IMG/VR virus record: IMGVR_UViG_2579779002_000007
Location: 1 to 10,778 of that record
Direction: 5' to 3' (one strand)
Length of the DNA: 10,778 bases
From: a virus
Taxonomy: Duplodnaviria; Heunggongvirae; Uroviricota; Caudoviricetes
The notes under the pieces are model-generated. The model worked only from the letters and a program-made list of their open reading frames with translations, had not been told where the DNA came from and ran no database searches. Made by a program: the position numbers and the translations under genes. The stretch's first letter is position 1. Each line of letters begins with the position of its first letter. This document shows positions 1 through 10,778 of the stretch, in pieces.

Positions 1-1
1 C

Positions 2-319
2 GATGAACTGCGGCGTAAGAAAATCAGCGCGCTTATCCCTCCCCGAAAAGGTGCGGGCTACTGGCCCGGTGAATATGCAGACCGTAACCGTGCAGTGGCT
101 AATCAGCGAATGACCGGGAGTAATGCGCGGTGGAAATGGACAACAGATTACAACCGTCGCTCGATAGCGGAAACGGCGATGTACCGGGTAAAACAGCTGT
201 TCGGGGGGTCACTGACGCTGCGTGACTACGATGGTCAGGTTGCGGAGGCTATGGCCCTGGTACGAGCGCTGAACAAAATGACGAAAGCAGGTATGCCTGA
301 AAGCGTGCGTATTGCCTGA
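2..319 (+). CDS. IS903-family DDE transposase, C-terminal fragment (5' end truncated by window edge)
   Basis: Frame 2 is open from the window start to TGA at 317-319. The listed 74-aa ORF (95-319) is only the part after an internal Met. Recalled similarity to the IS903 transposase C-terminus. Confidence 0.85.
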   Translation, partial: DELRRKKISALIPPRKGAGYWPGEYADRNRAVANQRMTGSNARWKWTTDYNRRSIAETAMYRVKQLFGGSLTLRDYDGQVAEAMALVRALNKMTKAGMPESVRIA

Positions 320-357
320 AAACACAACCCGCTACGGGGGAGACTTACCCGAAATCT

Positions 358-375
358 GATTTATTCAACAAAGCC
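358..375. repeat. IS903 terminal inverted repeat (outer end)
   Basis: GATTTATTCAACAAAGCC, the reverse complement of the canonical 18-bp IS903 IR; abuts the truncated hsdS codons. Confidence 0.7.
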
Positions 376-442
376 CCCCCAATGGCAACCACTCAACCTC
401 AACCCCATCCAGCAATTTTTCCAGATAACTCATCTCGCTCAT
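376..442 (-). pseudogene. hsdS: Type I R-M specificity subunit hsdS, 5' remnant (about 22 codons) truncated by the IS903-family insertion
   Basis: Minus-strand ATG at 442-440 overlaps the hsdM stop (ATGA). Translation [23 protein letters not shown] matches the conserved N-terminus of type IC HsdS proteins, then runs directly into the IS terminal repeat at 375. Confidence 0.6.
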
Positions 443-2001
443 TTCTGCACCTCGCAGCCTTCAATTTCAGCCACAATCGCATCAATATCTTTGCGCAACT
501 GGTCGATTTTGCTGACCGTGGTTTTCAGTTCTGCATTCAACTCAGCGATATCGATAATTTCGCGAGTATCTTTCGCTTCCACATAGCTGCTCACTGACAG
601 GTTATAGTCATTAGCGACAACGGTCTCAAACGCGACAGATTTCGCCAGATGAGCAACATCTTCCTTGCTGGCAAATACCTGCATAATCTGTTCGATATGG
701 GCATCGGTCAGGATATTGTTGTTAGTCTCTTTTTTGAATAGCTCGCTGGCGTCAATAAACTGAACGTTGGTATCGGTTTTATGTTTAGACAGCACCAGAA
801 TGTTTACGGCAATGGTGGTGCCAAAGAACAGGTTCGGAGCCAGTGAAATCACGGTTTCGACATAGTTATTATCGACCAGATACTGACGGATTTTCTGCTC
901 CGCGCCGCCACGGTAAAAAATACCCGGGAAGCAGACAATCGCAGCACGACCTTTGGCCGAAAGATAGTTCAGCGCATGTAATACAAACGCAAAGTCAGCT
1001 TTGGATTTGGGGGCCAGAACGCCAGCCGGGGCAAAACGTTCATCGTTAATCAGCGTCGGGTCATCGCTGCCAATCCATTTCACCGAATACGGCGGGTTAG
1101 AAACGATGGCATCAAACGGTTTTTCATCTCTGAAGTGCGGTTCAGTCAGCGTATTGCCCAGCTTGATATCAAACTTGTCGTAGTTGATGTTGTGCAAAAA
1201 CATGTTCATACGCGCCAGGTTATAGGTCGTATGGTTGATTTCCTGACCAAAAAAAACTTCTTCGATGATATGGTCATCAAACTGTTTTTTAGCCTGCAAC
1301 AACAGCGAACCGGAGCCTGCTGCCGGGTCGTAGATTTTGTTAACGTGGGGCTGCCCGTGCATAGCCAGTTGTGCAATCAGCTTGGAGACGTGTTGCGGTG
1401 TAAAGAACTCGCCGCCTGACTTACCGGCATTCGCCGCATAGTTAGAAATCAGGAACTCATAGGCATCGCCAAACAGGTCAATCTGATGTTCATTGAAGTC
1501 ACCAAGTTTTAACCCTTCAACCCCTTTCAGAACCGCAGCCAGGCGGGCATTTTTATCCTTAACGGTGTTACCCAGGCGGTTACTGGTGGTATCGAAATCA
1601 GCAAACAAACCTTTGATGTCAGCTTCTGAAGGGTAACCGTAAGCAGAGCTTTCGATAGCAACGAAGATACTGTTTAAATCTGCATTCAGTCTGTCATTGG
1701 TATTTGCTTTCGCAGCTACGTTGCAGAAAAGCTGACTTGGGTAGATGAAGTAGCCTTTGGTTTTGATGGCATCGTCTTTAATGTCATCAGTAATTACGCT
1801 GTCATCCAGTTTCGCATAACAGATGCTGTCATCACCGGCTTCAATATAGCTGGAAAAATTTTCGCTGATAAAACGGTAGAAAAGTGCGCCCAGAACGTAT
1901 TGCTTAAAATCCCATCCATCGACCGAACCCCTGACATCGTTAGCAATTTGCCAGATTTGACGATGAAGCTCTGCACGTTGTTGAATACTTGTCATTTTCA
2001 T
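439..2001 (-). CDS. hsdM: Type I restriction-modification N6-adenine DNA methyltransferase subunit HsdM (EcoR124I-like, type IC)
   Basis: 520-aa ORF with AdoMet motif I ([10 protein letters not shown]) and catalytic motif IV (NPPY, in SNPPYSVKW). The N-terminus [17 protein letters not shown] and the 520-aa length match my recollection of EcoR124I HsdM. The stop overlaps the hsdS start. Confidence 0.9.
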
Positions 2002-2109
2002 CCACTTATTTCAGGCTTATGTAATTGGATGTGATTCTACAGCAACTTGGATGCTTTAGCAGTTCGGACATTAGGCTACGAATGACCTGCCTAGAGGTTT
2101 GTTAAGCCG

Positions 2110-2177
2110 CAAAGTGCTGGTGCTTTATGCCTGTGAAGTTTATAATTGTGTACACATAACGAGTACACGAGGTGTTT
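2110..2177 (+). promoter_or_regulatory. phd-doc promoter/operator region (perfect -10 TATAAT at 2141-2146; palindrome GTGTACAC at 2148-2155 and a second GTAC-centred half-site at about 2161-2168)
   Basis: Perfect TATAAT followed immediately by an 8-bp perfect palindrome and a related repeat, matching the known architecture of the autoregulated P1 phd-doc operator. GAGG RBS at 2169-2172. Confidence 0.55.
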
Positions 2178-2399
2178 ATGCAATCCATTAACTTCCGTAC
2201 CGCGCGTGGCAACCTTTCTGAAGTGCTCAACAATGTTGAGGCCGGGGAAGAGGTTGAAATCACCCGCAGAGGCCGTGAGCCAGCAGTAATTGTCAGCAAG
2301 GCTACTTTCGAAGCCTACAAAAAAGCGGCGCTGGATGCTGAATTTGCATCCCTGTTTGACACCCTGGACTCCACCAACAAGGAACTGGTTAACCGATAA
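2178..2399 (+). CDS. phd: Phd antitoxin (prevent-host-death), 73 aa
   Basis: [73 protein letters not shown] is recognised as P1 Phd. ATG at 2178 is preferred over the in-frame GTG at 2172 because of RBS spacing and the 73-aa product. Stop overlaps the doc start (TAATG). Confidence 0.9.
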
Positions 2400-2779
2400 T
2401 GAGGCATATATCACCGGAAGAACTTATTGCGCTTCATGATGCGAATATAAACCGCTACGGCGGCCTGCCGGGAATGTCAGATCCGGGTAGGGCAGAGGCC
2501 ATTATCGGGAGAGTTCAGGCCAGAGTTGCCTACGAAGAGATCACCGACCTTTTCGAAGTCTCCGCCACCTACCTGGTGGCTACGGCGAGAGGGCATATAT
2601 TCAATGATGCCAATAAGCGTACCGCGCTAAACAGTGCGCTGTTATTTCTACGCCGTAACGGGGTGCAGGTATTTGATTCACCTGAACTGGCAGACCTTAC
2701 CGTAGGGGCTGCGACTGGCGAGATATCTGTATCTTCTGTCGCCGCCACGTTACGTAGATTGTATGGTTCTGCGGAGTAG
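2399..2779 (+). CDS. doc: Doc toxin (death-on-curing; Fic/Doc-family kinase), 126 aa
   Basis: 126-aa product with the Fic/Doc core [11 protein letters not shown], recognised as P1 Doc; translationally coupled to phd. Confidence 0.9.
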
Positions 2780-4661: not shown

Positions 4662-5855
4662 GTGACCTGGGACGATCACAAGAAGAATTTTGCTCGCCTG
4701 GCGCGAGATGGTGGTTACACCATCGCACAATATGCCGCCGAGTTTAATCTCAACCCAAACACCGCACGTCGTTATCTCCGTGCATTCAAAGAAGACACCG
4801 GAACAGCGGACAGCCGTAAGCCAAATAAGCCTGTCAGAAAACCACTAAAAAGCATGATCATTGATCACGCTAATGATCAACGTGCAAGTGATCACATTGT
4901 GGCTGAAATGGCTGAAAAACAAAGAGTTAATGCTGTTGTCAGTGCCGCAGTCGAGAACGCTAAGCGCCAAAATAAGCGCATAAATGATCGTTCTGATGAT
5001 CATGACGTGATCACCCGCGCCCACCGGACCTTACGTGATCGCCTGGAACGCGACACCCTGGATGATGATGGTGAACGCTTTGAATTCGAAGCTGGCGATT
5101 ACCTGATAGATAACGTTGAAGCGCGGAAGGCCGCGCGCGCTATGTTGCGTCGATCCGGGGCCGATGTTCTGGAAACCACTCTTCTGGAAAAGTCTCTTTC
5201 TCATCTCCTTATGCTGGAGAACGCCAGGGATACGTGTATTCGCCTGGTGCAGGAAATGCGCGATCAGCAAAAAGACGATGATGAAGGTACTCCGCCTGAA
5301 TACCGTATCGCGAGCATGCTAAACAGCTGTTCCGCGCAGATAAGCAGTCTGATCAACACCATTTACAGCATCCGGAATAACTATCGAAAAGAAAGCCGGG
5401 AGGCGGAAAAGCACGCTTTGTCTATGGGGCAAGCTGGCATTGTTAAGCTGGCATACGAACGAAAGCGTGAAAATAACTGGTCAGTGCTGGAAGCAGCTGA
5501 ATTCATCGAGGCGCATGGCGGGAAAGTGCCGCCCCTGATGCTGGAGCAAATCAAAGCCGATCTGCGTGCTCCTAAGACCAATACCGATGATGAGGAAAGG
5601 CAAACAGCCGTCGGTGGCCCTTCTCTTGAAGATCTGGACAAAGTTGCGCGAGAACGGGCCGCCAACCGCCGCGCCGATGCCGCATTGTGGATTGAGCAGC
5701 GTAGGGAAGAAATCGCCGATATCGTTGATACAGGCGGTTATGGAGATGTTGATACTGAAGGTGTATCAAACGACCCATGGCTGGAACAAGACCTGGACGA
5801 AGACGAGGAGGAAGACGAAGAAGTTACCCGCAAGCTATACGGGGATGATGATTAA
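4662..5855 (+). CDS. pacA: PacA, P1-type terminase pac-recognition (small) subunit, 397 aa
   Basis: GTG start with AAGGAAG RBS; 397 aa, matching P1 PacA length. The pac site hexamer repeats lie inside the 5' part of the ORF as in P1. Stop overlaps the pacB ATG (TAATG). Confidence 0.85.
4855..5014. other. pac: pac packaging site: 4 + 3 hexanucleotide TGATC(A/G) elements, each carrying a Dam GATC site
   Basis: TGATCA at 4855-4860, 4862-4867, 4874-4879 and 4889-4894 (left cluster). TGATCG at 4985-4990, TGATCA at 4998-5003 and 5009-5014 (right cluster). Matches the known P1 pac architecture with cleavage between the clusters. Confidence 0.7.
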
Positions 5856-7339
5856 TGGCCAGAAGTTGCGTAACGGATCCACGTTGGCGCGAGTTGGTGG
5901 CGCTATATCGTTATGACTGGATTGCGGCCGCTGATGTTTTGTTCGGCAAAACACCTACCTGGCAGCAGGATCTGATTATTGAGTCTGTGCAGGAACAGGG
6001 TAGCAAGACATCTGTTTCGTCTGGTCACGGTACCGGGAAATCAGACATGACTTCTATCATGATCATGTTGTTCATAATCATGTATCCCGGTGCCCGTGCC
6101 ATTATCGTTGCGAACAAAATTCAGCAGGTAATGACCGGTATATTCAAGTACATCAAGATAAACTGGGCTACGGCCACCAGCCGTTTTCCGTGGCTTGCTG
6201 ATTATTTTGTTCTGACAGAAACCGCTTTTTATGAAGTTACTGGTAAAGGTGTATGGACTGTAGTACCGAAGGGCTTTCGTCTGGGAAGTGAATAAGCTCT
6301 CGCAGGTGAACACGCAGATCATCTTCTGTATATTATCGATGAAGCCTCCGGTGTCAGTGATAGAGCTTTCGGTATCATCACCGGTGCTCTTACCGGACAG
6401 GATAACCGCATCTTATTGCTGTCACAGCCTACACGCCCAAGCGGCTATTTCTACGATACTCACCATAAACTGGCCAAGCGTCCTGGTAACCCTGATGGCG
6501 TTTATACGGCGATCACGCTTAACAGTGAGGAATCACCGCTGGTAACGCCAGCATTTATCAAAATGAAGCTGGCGGAGTACGGCGGGCGTGATAACCCTAT
6601 GTACATGATTAAGGTACGCGGACTATTCCCTAAATCACAGGATGGCTTCCTTCTTGGACGTGATGAGGTTGAACGTGCGACGCGGCGGAAAGTCAAGATT
6701 GCCAAAGGATGGGGCTGGCTTGCATGTGTGGACGTTGCTGGTGGTACGGGACGGGATAAGTCCGTTATCAATATCATGATGGTGTCCGGCCAGAGAAATA
6801 AACGCCGTGTAATCAACTATCGAATGCTGGAATACACAGACGTTACAGAAACGCAGCTTGCCGCCAAAATTTTCGCAGAATGTAATCCTGAGCGATTCCC
6901 AAATATCACCATAGCGATAGACGGCGATGGCCTGGGTAAAGCAACGGCGGATCTGATGTACGAGTATTATGGTATTACCGTACAGCGTATACGCTGGGGT
7001 AAAAAGATGCATAGCCGTGAAGATAAGAGCCTGTACTTTGATAAACGTGCTTATGCCAACGTTCAAGCCGCAGAGGCCGTAAAATCTGGTCGTATGAGAC
7101 TGGATAAGGGTAATGAAACTATTGAGGAAGCGTCGAAAATCCCTGTAGGGATTAACTCCGCGGGTCAATGGAAAGTGATGAGTAAGGAGGATATGAAGAA
7201 AAAACTCAACCTGCACTCACCAGACCATTGGGATACATATTGTTTCGCTATGCTGGCGGATTATGTTCCTCAGGATGAAGTGCTTAGCGTCGAAGACGAA
7301 GCGCAGGTTGATGAAGCTCTGGCATGGCTTAATGAATGA
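5855..7339 (+). pseudogene. pacB: PacB-like large terminase subunit, 494 codons in total, interrupted by an in-frame TAA at codon 147 (6293-6295)
   Basis: ORF-track pieces 5855-6295 and 6416-7339 are in the same frame. Hand translation of 6296-6415 is open and encodes the Walker B-like segment [15 protein letters not shown]. Walker A (SGHGTGKS) lies upstream of the stop. Total length of 1485 nt equals the expected P1 PacB size. Confidence 0.7.
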
Positions 7340-7342
7340 ACA

Positions 7343-7359
7343 TTTGCTCTAATGAATTG
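7343..7359 (+). promoter_or_regulatory. C1 operator-like site immediately downstream of pacB stop
   Basis: TTTGCTCTAATGAATTG matches the C1 operator consensus at 14 of 17 positions, with a perfect TTGCTCTAAT core. Confidence 0.4.
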
Positions 7360-7484
7360 TGTTTTTTAACTACCGATGTTACATTGAACCTGACCTCTTG
7401 CGCCTTGAGGCATTTTCGGTTTATGCTTATCAGGCACCTCATTAAAACGGGTGCCGGGATTGAGACCCCGGATAATGCAAAAGG

Positions 7485-7519
7485 CGACACAGACGCCAAA
7501 AGCGTCTTTTTTTGTGTCA
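7485..7519 (+). terminator. Rho-independent terminator after the pac operon
   Basis: Stem AGACGC (7491-7496) / GCGTCT (7502-7507), loop CAAAA, followed by a T7 run (7507-7513). An outer GACACA/TGTGTC pair extends the hairpin. No U-tract on the opposite strand. Confidence 0.55.
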
Positions 7520-7555
7520 TGCCATCGCACAGCCATACGTAGCGTTTAGCTCAGA

Positions 7556-7648
7556 GATCAATGGTAGTGCTGGCTGGGCTGCCGAAAGGCAGGCCGGTTC
7601 CCTTTTGCGCCGGTAGTCTCAACCCAGTCAGTGCTACCGCCATTGAGA
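7556..7648 (+). ncRNA. c4: c4-like antisense RNA candidate (immI-type translational repressor, tRNA-like fold)
   Basis: 7-bp long-range stem TCAATGG (7558-7564) / CCATTGA (7640-7646) encloses a CTGGG/CCCAG helix, a GNRA hairpin (CTGCC-GAAA-GGCAG, 7579-7592) and a hairpin (CCGG 7594-7597 / CCGG 7610-7613) whose 12-nt loop contains CCTTTTGC (7601-7608), perfectly complementary to GCAAAAGG (7680-7687) at the icd RBS. Boundaries are approximate. Confidence 0.4.
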
Positions 7649-7698
7649 TTGAGACCTCACGCGGTAGCTCCTTAAATTAGCAAAAGGAGGCTGCCATT

Positions 7699-7920
7699 GT
7701 GGCTACTATCCCTACCCCTGCTCATTCTGAATTTATCTGGCGCTTTTACTCCTGCCAAAAACGTCACTATCACTTCGTTATTGCACCGACAGAAGATGAG
7801 GCACGTTCTCAGCTTCCGGATGCTCCCTGTATTTTCTCTGCCCGCTTTTCTACCGATTCGCGCAATTCTCTCAGTTACTGGTGCCTCCCTATTAACGCTT
7901 CTGCTCAGGAGGGACTATGA
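7699..7920 (+). CDS. icd: Icd-like small protein (interference with cell division), 73 aa
   Basis: GTG start 8 nt after AAGGAGG (7684-7690). 73 codons matches the recalled size of P1 Icd. Stop overlaps the ant ATG (ATGA), consistent with translational coupling. Frame choice is uncertain. Confidence 0.45.
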   Translation: MATIPTPAHSEFIWRFYSCQKRHYHFVIAPTEDEARSQLPDAPCIFSARFSTDSRNSLSYWCLPINASAQEGL

Positions 7921-9029
7921 GAACGTCATTAGTCACCCGTGAAGAGATGATCGAGGCAATTGAACAGCACACTGCCTGTATCAGTACCAGGGATATACCG
8001 GGCGTTATTGCCAACTACTTCATGATCACCAAACAACTTTACCGGAGAAAGGACAAACACGCGGTTCACCGCATTCTGCTAACCGATATCCGTGAATACC
8101 TGCTCGAACAGGGTCATCTGAATTACGCAACCGTCGCAGCCGAAGCACGCAAGGAGGCACACAGAATGAAAGCAACTAACGTTAAATCAGAAAAAATTTA
8201 TGCACCTTCAGTTCAGGAATCGGAACTGGTGGTTGTTCAGAATCAGCCGGATGAAATTCCCGTTCTGGAATGGCAGGGAGTACGTGTCGTGACAACCGAA
8301 ACTCTTGCTAGAGGGTATGGGGTCGATGAAGCCAATATTCGCAACAATTTGTCTCGCAACCTTGACCGCTTTGAAGAAGGTAAGCATTACTTTCTTCTAA
8401 CTGGTTTAAAATTAAGAGAATTTAAGAACAGAGTAACCGGAAGTTACTCTGTTGGTAAGAACGCCAGAAGCCTTACACTCTGGACAGAGCGCGGCGCTGC
8501 ACGCATGTCTAAGATCGTGGACACAAATGAAGCATGGGCATTCTTTGAAAAACTGGAAGACAGCTACTTCCGGCAAAAAGAACAGCAACCGGTTGCAATC
8601 CCCCAAACATTACCAGAAGCCCTACGCCTGGCTGCCGAACTGGCTGAACAAAAGCAGCTTCTGGAACAGAAAGCCCACCAGCTAAATCAGCAGCTGGTAG
8701 CCGCCGCTCCTAAGGTCGATTTTGCCGACCGGGTATCAGTAGCTAAAGGGATCCTGATTGGGAATTTTGCAAAGGTTGTTGGACTTAAGCAAAACGCGCT
8801 GTTTGCCTGGTTACGGGAGAACGGCATCCTGATAGCGTCCGGTGGACGTAAAAATGTGCCGTTCCAGCAGTACATCAACGCGGGGTATTTCACGGTGAAA
8901 GAAGTGGTGCTGGATGATGAAGATGGCTACCAGATACGGTTGACGCCTCAATTAACGGGTAAAGGCCAGCAGTGGTTGACGCGTAAACTGCTCGATGCTG
9001 GCTTGTTAAAACCGGTGGCGGCTGAATAA
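7917..9029 (+). CDS. ant: Antirepressor Ant (Ant1, 370 aa), N-terminal Ant/ORF6N-like domain plus C-terminal KilA-C/ANT domain; nested in-frame Ant2 start at 8166
   Basis: Central segment VLEWQGVRVVTTETLARGYGVDEANIRNNLSRNLDRFEEGKHYF and C-terminal segment GNFAKVVGLKQNALFAWLRENGILIASGGRKNVPFQQYINAGYFTVKEV are typical of phage antirepressor domains. Internal ATG at 8166 (Met84) is preceded by a perfect AAGGAGG at 8151-8157. Confidence 0.75.
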   Translation: MRTSLVTREEMIEAIEQHTACISTRDIPGVIANYFMITKQLYRRKDKHAVHRILLTDIREYLLEQGHLNYATVAAEARKEAHRMKATNVKSEKIYAPSVQESELVVVQNQPDEIPVLEWQGVRVVTTETLARGYGVDEANIRNNLSRNLDRFEEGKHYFLLTGLKLREFKNRVTGSYSVGKNARSLTLWTERGAARMSKIVDTNEAWAFFEKLEDSYFRQKEQQPVAIPQTLPEALRLAAELAEQKQLLEQKAHQLNQQLVAAAPKVDFADRVSVAKGILIGNFAKVVGLKQNALFAWLRENGILIASGGRKNVPFQQYINAGYFTVKEVVLDDEDGYQIRLTPQLTGKGQQWLTRKLLDAGLLKPVAAE

Positions 9030-9036
9030 TGGAAGA

Positions 9037-9064
9037 ATGCCCGGTTGATGCCGGGCATAATTTA
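9037..9064. terminator. Hairpin between convergent ant and c1 (probable bidirectional terminator)
   Basis: 8-bp perfect stem ATGCCCGG (9037-9044) / CCGGGCAT (9051-9058) with a 6-nt loop, flanked by AT-rich sequence on both sides. Sits between the ant stop (9029) and the c1 stop (9062-9064). Confidence 0.5.
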
Positions 9065-9913
9065 TTGCGCGCTTTCGGGGTTGTCGTTTACTGGCTGCCC
9101 CTTCTTGGTTTTACGGCTGCGCGTAACTGATGCGGCTGACTTAACCTTTTTCTCTTCGCGAGTGATGGCAATTTGTTTTTTTACATTTTCAATATCTGCC
9201 AGGCGATATATTTTTGCTTGCGGCCAGCGGTCGCAGATGATCGGTTCTATGGAGTCATAAAGGCTAAATTTTGCTTTTTCGAATTCACCGTTGATGATAA
9301 TTCCATCACGGAGAGTTTCATCGCAGATAAACACGCCACACAGTGGCACATGGTAACTAACTGATTTACCATCATTGTAGTTAGGGCTACTGGAAATGTA
9401 GTGGACGCGCAGCATTGTTTCGCTAAAGCCGTGTACGCGCATACGGAATTTTTCATCCTCCGGGTACTGCTTCATTAGCTCTTTTGTTGCTTCCAGGTTC
9501 TCTATGTATTTCGCACTGTGCTCATTGATCCCCGCGCTTTTTTGGATGCGAATATCCTTATCAATCAGATGAATAATGCGGCCAGCGGTCATGTTGACGC
9601 TGTTCACAGCCTCTGTCTGATAAGTTGTAACCTTACGCACACCGCGAAGGATGTTAGGCACTGGATATAAAATAGTCTTTGGGATATTGAGGTCTGGGTA
9701 CTGTTCCAGTTCCCGCGCCATTAAAGTCCATTTATCAATTTCAGCCTGAATGCTGTCAGTTTCTTTGAACGGTAGAACGACAACCGGGCGTACAGGACGA
9801 CCGTCGCTGGCTGTATCAACGTGTTGGGCGCGTGCAACAGCTTTTTTTAGAAAGAGATCCCTGAAGCTGACGAACTCCTGGTACAGTTGTTCGCCGTAGA
9901 CATAATTTATCAT
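9062..9913 (-). CDS. c1: C1 repressor of lysogeny (P1 immC), 283 aa
   Basis: 283-aa product beginning MINYVYGEQLYQEFVSFRDLF, recognised as P1 C1. GGAGGAGG RBS upstream of the ATG on the minus strand. Confidence 0.9.
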   Translation of the reverse strand: MINYVYGEQLYQEFVSFRDLFLKKAVARAQHVDTASDGRPVRPVVVLPFKETDSIQAEIDKWTLMARELEQYPDLNIPKTILYPVPNILRGVRKVTTYQTEAVNSVNMTAGRIIHLIDKDIRIQKSAGINEHSAKYIENLEATKELMKQYPEDEKFRMRVHGFSETMLRVHYISSSPNYNDGKSVSYHVPLCGVFICDETLRDGIIINGEFEKAKFSLYDSIEPIICDRWPQAKIYRLADIENVKKQIAITREEKKVKSAASVTRSRKTKKGQPVNDNPESAQ

Positions 9914-10007
9914 TGATCCTCCTCCAGAATTGACATGGCCAATAACGCCCGGCTGAGAAAACCGGTCATTACTGACCTATATTATAGAGGGATCAAACAA
10001 AAATAAT

Positions 10008-10024
10008 AGATTTATTAGTGCATT
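10008..10024 (-). promoter_or_regulatory. C1 operator-like site (Op99-type) between coi and c1
   Basis: Reverse complement AATGCACTAATAAATCT matches the C1 operator consensus at 14 of 17 positions. Located in the c1 upstream region where P1 carries autoregulatory operators. Confidence 0.45.
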
Positions 10025-10233
10025 TATTGTGAGTCTAACTGGTTAGTTGCCATGAGATATTCGATTGTGTCAGTGAGGTCATCCAGGTCGTCTTGGGTGA
10101 TGCGGTACTCCTGATTGGATATCTTTGAGTAGTGTTCAGCAATGGCGCGGGCAGCGTCGGTTTCGGCAGGGTCTACAGATAAAGCGTTAGAGCAATGTCT
10201 AACGTCGTCGATGGTTGGTTGAATGAAAGCCAT
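10024..10233 (-). CDS. coi: Coi, C1 inactivator protein, 69 aa
   Basis: 69-aa acidic protein directly upstream of c1 on the same strand; size and position match P1 Coi. Confidence 0.85.
   Translation of the reverse strand: MAFIQPTIDDVRHCSNALSVDPAETDAARAIAEHYSKISNQEYRITQDDLDDLTDTIEYLMATNQLDSQ
10180..10196 (-). promoter_or_regulatory. Additional C1 operator-like site inside the coi coding region
   Basis: Reverse complement ATTGCTCTAACGCTTTT matches the consensus at 13 of 17 positions, with a perfect ATTGCTCTAA half. Confidence 0.3.
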
Positions 10234-10316
10234 AATTATGCCTCACTGTATTGACAACACAGAGCCTGAAGCTCTGACCTACTGTTTCACCCATGATCCA
10301 TGCTGGGGTAATCTAA

Positions 10317-10778
<462 letters not shown>

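Follow-up and report, generated by a model that had tools for sequence, protein, structure and literature searches.

The hsd genes of the type IC restriction-modification system EcoR124I lie in the order hsdM-hsdS-hsdR. We found this order, with the three genes on one strand, in all intact relatives examined, namely pXD35003, vB_EcoM-673R5, the 1332KP plasmid and a chromosomal island of EBJ003; an explicit statement of the gene order of type IC systems was not found in the literature searched. Three of these (pXD35003, vB_EcoM-673R5 and 1332KP) are P1-like elements, and in each of them phd-doc is located just upstream of hsdM, as it is in the DNA described here. The arrangement is a common one: among the plasmids of PLSDB, the hsdM segment is present in 888, hsdR in 858 and the hsdM-phd junction in approximately 700. 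The hsdM and hsdS genes are co-transcribed, with overlapping stop and start codons (PMC3510504). The active methylase is M2S1, in which the S subunit gives sequence recognition and binds DNA only with M2 (PMC12707154). No paper was found in our search on the IS903B composite described below or on the type IC cassettes of P1-like elements.

The stretch of DNA analyzed here (the window, 10,778 nt) is the whole of the draft contig JJLV01000030.1 (assembly GCA_000627965.1) in reversed orientation, and both of its ends fall inside IS elements, IS903B on the left and ISKpn26 on the right. Two complete E. coli records have the identical IS903B/hsdS junction at 99.9% identity, and both are 99.7–99.8% identical to the window over 10.3 kb. 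These sister genomes are the plasmid pE102651_87 (NZ_CP189663.1) from Gambia and the chromosome of TUM14664 (NZ_CP135649.1) from Japan. The left part of the window is likely a remnant of a type IC operon that was cut by IS903B, the IS copy being an arm of a mobile block of P1 DNA and HsdM an orphan subunit. The starting point would have been an hsdM-hsdS-hsdR operon such as is carried by many P1-type plasmid prophages between pap/pmgS and phd-doc, and the region would represent the promoter-proximal remnant of that EcoR124-family operon, with IS903B occupying hsdS after codon 22. The event is of a known kind, and the junctions are already annotated as partial hsdS and IS903B in the RefSeq records of the sister genomes.

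The hsdM gene (439..2001, minus strand) is an uninterrupted frame encoding 520 residues, or 518 if translation starts at the second Met (1995). Its product matches the NCBIfam profile TIGR00497 (hsdM, 648 bits) and the Pfam domains HsdM_N (PF12161) and N6_Mtase (PF02384), and is identical to the M subunit of EcoR124 (PDB 7BST, chain D) at 516 of 520 positions, end to end. Motif I (DPAAGSGS) is found at residue 225 and motif IV (NPPY) at residue 302. The closeness to EcoR124, the two domains and the two motifs place this protein as the HsdM subunit of the EcoR124 family, in agreement with the initial annotation, which had described a full-length, EcoR124I-like hsdM of 520 aa.

The hsdS gene that follows is reduced to a stub (365..442, minus strand). 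It starts at 442, where its start codon and the hsdM stop codon overlap as ATGA, and consists of 22 native codons (442..377) and one additional nucleotide, followed by three IS-encoded codons (GLC) and a stop, 25 aa in total. The break at 375/376 was placed by comparison with a relative that is uninterrupted there, and the first 22 residues match the conserved N-terminus of HsdS of the relatives. Compared with intact HsdS proteins of 401 aa and 404 aa, the stub is without both target-recognition domains and without the central and C-terminal conserved helices, so that 22 native codons are what remains of the complete two-domain HsdS of a type IC system. PGAP calls the same 66 nt a partial hsdS in both sister genomes.

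The DNA that adjoins the stub is the 3′ terminal 375 bp of IS903B (IS5 family, IS903 group; 1..375, plus strand), as judged from an NCBIfam match to the C-terminus of IS5-family transposases and from 99–99.7% identity to annotated IS903B copies. The C-terminal part of the transposase extends to 319, and positions 358–375 hold the right terminal inverted repeat of 18 bp (GGCTTTGTTGAATAAATC). In both sister genomes the full IS903B has a length of 1057 bp and its terminal repeats match; the window holds the last 375 bp only. The hsdS bases abutting the IS end, which would be the 9-bp target (376..384), read CCCCCAATG, and the uninterrupted relative (L001) reads CTTCCCCCAATGG across the same position. 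The truncation of hsdS after about 22 codons by an IS903-family element, as initially annotated, is therefore borne out.

In the enzymes of this family, HsdS is required for recognition and for the assembly of M2S1, and HsdR for cleavage. Since the locus has no usable HsdS and no HsdR, established enzymology implies that by itself it should be without modification or restriction activity, HsdM being an orphan subunit. The same had been proposed in the initial annotation, and the proposal is sound; the 22 residues left of HsdS stop short of the first recognition domain. With the operon unaltered on its promoter side, HsdM could still be produced, but it would be of use only where a type IC HsdS is provided in trans. 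Type IC half-S subunits of EcoDXXI and EcoR124I are functional (PMC3510504), and by analogy one might imagine that the 25-aa stub, or HsdM alone, gives a working methylase in the manner of dimerizing half-S subunits. Such an activity is barely conceivable, because half-S proteins that function retain one whole target-recognition domain together with one conserved helix (PMC3510504), and the stub comes to its end before the first such domain starts.

The position of hsdR requires a different reading from that given initially, in which hsdR-hsdM-hsdS was taken as the usual type IC order and the spacer of about 170 bp between hsdM and phd, with no hsdR in it, as an anomaly. The first premise is contradicted by the order in all the intact relatives examined. 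The spacer itself is as described: the intergenic region between the divergent hsdM and phd-doc genes (2002..2177) measures 176 bp between the two start codons (hsdM ATG at 2001, phd ATG at 2178) and contains no hsdR. However, this absence upstream of hsdM is normal because the family order is hsdM-hsdS-hsdR, from which it also follows that hsdR is expected downstream of hsdS, which places it left of the IS and beyond the edge of the window. The ORF list of the 10,778-nt window contains no hsdR, and the downstream hsdR of a type IC system is thus not found within it. A "missing hsdR" in type IC loci should not be flagged from the gene order of type IA or type IB systems. Matches to the phages P1, P7 and SJ46 start at query positions 1721–1727 of window segment 376–2400, i.e., at about 2096–2102, and the part of the spacer from 2002 to approximately 2100 therefore belongs to the hsd cassette. 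A simple sigma-70 scan of 2002..2177 gave no consensus site, and in a simple promoter and terminator scan the matches were no more numerous than in shuffled sequence.

What lies on the other side of the IS could be followed in the two sister genomes. The outer flank of the hsdS-side IS903B copy is ATAACAAAG in pE102651_87 and GTTTCAGGC in TUM14664, and a comparison with the inner flank given above for the window shows no 9-bp duplication around this copy in either sister. Since the outer flanks differ from the inner one, the IS903B copy is no longer a simple insertion in the sister genomes. Across the IS, pE102651_87 has Tn5403 and a his/O-antigen block, and TUM14664 has proV; neither the remainder of hsdS nor hsdR was found anywhere in the whole plasmid pE102651_87. 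The pE102651_87 plasmid keeps P1-type repA and parAB genes, and most of its phage genes have been replaced. In their place stand, among other things, an operon for cellulose synthase, an autotransporter gene and numerous IS elements, together with a galF-gnd-his block that includes an O-antigen gene cluster. Several protein accessions in this block may be Klebsiella- or Enterobacter-like.

In TUM14664, a second IS903B in direct orientation interrupts the P1 mat gene at a distance of about 17.5 kb. The two copies bound a block of 18,575 bp (NZ_CP135649.1, 4058725–4077299) located between proV and nrdF, with the order IS903B-hsdS'-hsdM-phd-doc-pdcAB-lpa-pacAB-ant-c1-coi-cra-cre-...-ref'-mat'-IS903B, and a perfect 9-bp duplication of the outer flank noted above for this genome is present on both sides of the whole block. 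Two IS903B arms and a single duplication around the whole unit indicate that the TUM14664 block moved as a composite transposon. Both arms and the one duplication are seen in TUM14664, while the window shows one arm and has ISKpn26 at its right end. In pE102651_87, the IS903B copy in mat has a duplication of its own (GTTGGAACG). We also considered that the distal part of hsdS and hsdR might be located at the far end of a putative integration of a whole plasmid in TUM14664; the insert is only the 18.6-kb block, and this was discarded.

These results bear on the reading implied by the initial annotation, in which a simple insertion of IS903B would have left CCCCCAATG duplicated just beyond the IS, followed there by the rest of hsdS (its 3′ part) and an intact hsdR. 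From such a state, precise excision or recombination could restore the system. It must once have existed for IS903B to enter hsdS, the TUM14664 composite is derivable from it as well as from a state of loss, and the window contig ends in IS903B, so the distal hsdS and hsdR could still adjoin there. It is nevertheless unlikely for the window, given that the two complete genomes that share the junction, which match the window so closely over 10.3 kb, have neither the duplication nor the hsdS remainder nor hsdR. The 9-bp target duplication (a copy of 376–384) that had been predicted, and the hsdS remainder and hsdR that were expected across the IS, are both absent in these nearest complete genomes, and the IS is better described as the arm of a block. 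In the reading that we prefer, the IS903B copy in the lineage of the window would be a rearrangement joint, one arm of an IS903B-bounded block of about 18.6 kb; in the complete sister genomes, hsdR and the distal part of hsdS have been lost. The P1 fragment with immunity, pac, phd-doc and the hsdM remnant is carried between plasmid and chromosome in the form of an IS903B composite.

The hsdM gene is intact in the window but not in its sisters. Both pE102651_87 and TUM14664 have a 1-bp deletion in hsdM at window position 1783, which leads to a stop near codon 95, and PGAP labels their hsdM "frameshifted". Between the window and TUM14664 there are 24 differences over 10.3 kb, of which 16 are located within 1350–1849 (Poisson P ~2e-20). 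At sites that distinguish the alleles of the sisters and of EBJ003, the hsdM of the window is sister-like at 52, then chromosomal-like at 16 and then again sister-like at 18. These sites delimit a tract of 500–569 bp (1350–1849 at minimum, 1316..1884 at maximum) that has 100% identity to the type IC hsdM allele of a chromosomal island (EBJ003) and covers position 1783, the site of the frameshift in the sisters; its flanks are identical to the sisters and 89–95% identical to the chromosomal allele. The hsdM allele of the sisters diverges from other P1-type alleles by about 3%, evenly along the whole gene, and it is therefore the window that is the recombinant. The donor of the tract appears to have been a chromosomal type IC hsdM, which would have converted the gene of the element while both were in one cell; a type IC system would therefore have resided in that cell at some time. 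Conversion may have repaired an ancestral frameshift or replaced a segment that was intact, the frameshift having arisen either before or after the lineages split. At window positions 958, 981 and 1027, within hsdM, pE102651_87 differs from the window and TUM14664, and two of the three match the chromosomal allele; this cluster may be a second small conversion patch.

A contig search with the 518-aa form of HsdM returned the source contig and one independent ENA contig (L009) with an identical protein; the same search with the 520-aa form gave no matches. Over 376–2178 the ENA contig and the window are 100% identical, and the mosaic is therefore not due to chimeric assembly. Because the window is a short draft contig with IS repeats at both ends, one might suspect that the junction or the mosaic gene reflects the collapse of an IS repeat or the joining of two hsdM paralogues into a chimera. 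With the same mosaic in an independent assembly and the identical junction in two complete genomes, an artifact is very improbable. Outside the tract, codon 249 has changed from GGN to GTN (Gly249Val; 1255..1257, minus strand), a change common to the window and the ENA contig only. We considered it as an inactivating change and dropped it as unsupported, since this position varies among homologues and PDB 3LKD has Val.

The conversion patch points to a complementing type IC system, which the initial annotation had named as a condition under which the locus would not be inactive. HsdM could then assemble with the HsdS and HsdR of a putative resident chromosomal system, and the gene would be kept by selection or by conversion. 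The complete identity of the tract to a chromosomal allele, which places both loci once in one cell, is consistent with such complementation, and so are the retention of all motifs by hsdM, the definition of type I families by subunit exchange (PMC12707154) and the presence of a type IC hsdM, mostly chromosomal, in about one quarter of complete E. coli genomes. The frameshifted pseudogene in both sisters argues against selection, and a nonsense codon in the nearby pacB gene fits general decay. A functional locus of this kind is possible but on the unlikely side, and we prefer an orphan HsdM in a decaying operon. A further idea, which we regard as highly doubtful, is that an orphan hsdM, traveling on an IS903B block together with Phd-Doc and kept or restored by conversion with chromosomal type IC loci, might serve as an extra supply of M subunit or as portable homology for the exchange of hsd genes between P1 fragments and the chromosome. 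What the clean tract does show is recombination between the type IC hsdM alleles of plasmids and those of chromosomes; a decaying hsdM can thereby appear intact, and there is a hint of a complementing system resident in the cell.

The surroundings of the hsd remnant are derived from P1 and are in decay. The addiction module that adjoins it (2178..2779, plus strand) consists of phd (2178–2399) and doc (2399–2779), identified from the NCBIfam models phd_fam and DOC_P1, the Pfam families PhdYeFM and Fic and the annotation of relatives, and the reported position of the hsd genes next to a Phd-Doc module holds on these matches. The order phd-doc-pdcA-pdcB-lpa-pacA-pacB...c1-coi, with high identity to genomes of the P1 group, is the synteny of P1-like (Punavirus) elements. 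The pacB gene for the terminase large subunit (5855–7339) is split by a nonsense codon (6293–6295, GAA to TAA) into ORFs of 146 aa and 307 aa; this stop is common to the ENA contig and absent from both sisters. The P1 remnant is probably unable to package DNA. P1 morphogenesis genes are absent from the sister plasmid pE102651_87. The description of the carrier as a phage-plasmid needs to be amended in this respect: the DNA is P1-derived, but it has the pacB nonsense codon, and in the sisters the block is what remains of P1, located in one case in a degraded plasmid and in the other in the chromosome.

On the right, an end of ISKpn26 (IS5 family; 10317–10778) follows coi, with the target CTAA at 10313–10316. 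The 1332KP plasmid, with intact hsdMSR genes and an identity of only about 97%, has the same coi/ISKpn26 junction. The common junction could be either an old insertion or a preferred site. The 1332KP plasmid was considered as a direct ancestor on account of this junction and rejected, as it is only about 97% identical.

Insertions of IS elements into type IC hsd operons are recurrent and independent. The IncHI1B plasmid CP099035.1, which is not a P1 plasmid, carries a fragment with hsdS'-hsdM-phd-doc-pdcA-pdcB-lpa (5351–10583) that is bounded by TnAs1 and by a different IS903-family element, whose junction falls in a different hsdS allele and is 9 nt further into the gene. The first ~25 codons of type IC hsdS have therefore been struck by IS903-type elements on two independent occasions. 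In the chromosomes of CREC-2 and GF43, a type IC operon in a tRNA-Ser island is cut at the 3′ end of hsdM by IS903B (locus ~11400–20400), and hsdS and hsdR are replaced by an O-antigen cluster of the ABC-transporter type (rfbB, glf, glycosyltransferases). We considered these loci as further copies of the P1 block; they are instead independent IS903B truncations of the chromosomal-island operon. In CREC-2, GF43 and pE102651_87, IS903B is associated with polysaccharide gene clusters beside hsd remnants. Inactivation of restriction-modification systems by IS elements is routine, and the locus matters little beyond its annotation; the composite block and the conversion tract round off the picture without bringing a surprise.

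The closest described systems are EcoR124I and EcoR124II of plasmid R124 (PDB 7BST), which have an HsdM of the same length with 516 of 520 residues in common and the same overlap of the hsdM stop and the hsdS start. Relatives of the EcoR124 type have the hsdM-hsdS-hsdR order and TAEL repeats in the central region of HsdS. The present locus differs in that only hsdM survives, with 22 codons of hsdS and no hsdR in the window, and in that the carrier is P1-type DNA and not R124. The type IC cassettes of P1-like elements (IncY, Punavirus-type), such as those of pXD35003, vB_EcoM-673R5 and 1332KP, share the position adjacent to phd-doc and the intergenic sequence. Most of these relatives keep all three hsd genes, whereas hsdS and hsdR are lost from the lineage of the window; in pXD35003, ISEc68 has entered hsdS independently.

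As for the mobile block, the TUM14664 unit resembles the IS903-bounded composites of the Tn903 type in that its cargo is flanked by two directly repeated IS copies, here IS903B of 1057 bp, and the whole unit by a 9-bp duplication. It differs from them in its cargo, which is about 16.5 kb of P1 DNA (hsdS'-hsdM, phd-doc, pac, c1, cre, ref', mat') with no resistance gene. In the window, compared with such a composite, only a single IS903B arm is seen, and past coi the block is broken by ISKpn26. Finally, as in EcoDXXI::Tn5 and the EcoR124I deletion mutants, a mobile element cuts a type IC hsdS here, but those truncations keep a whole recognition domain and helix and are active as dimers (PMC3510504), whereas only 22 residues are left in the present case.
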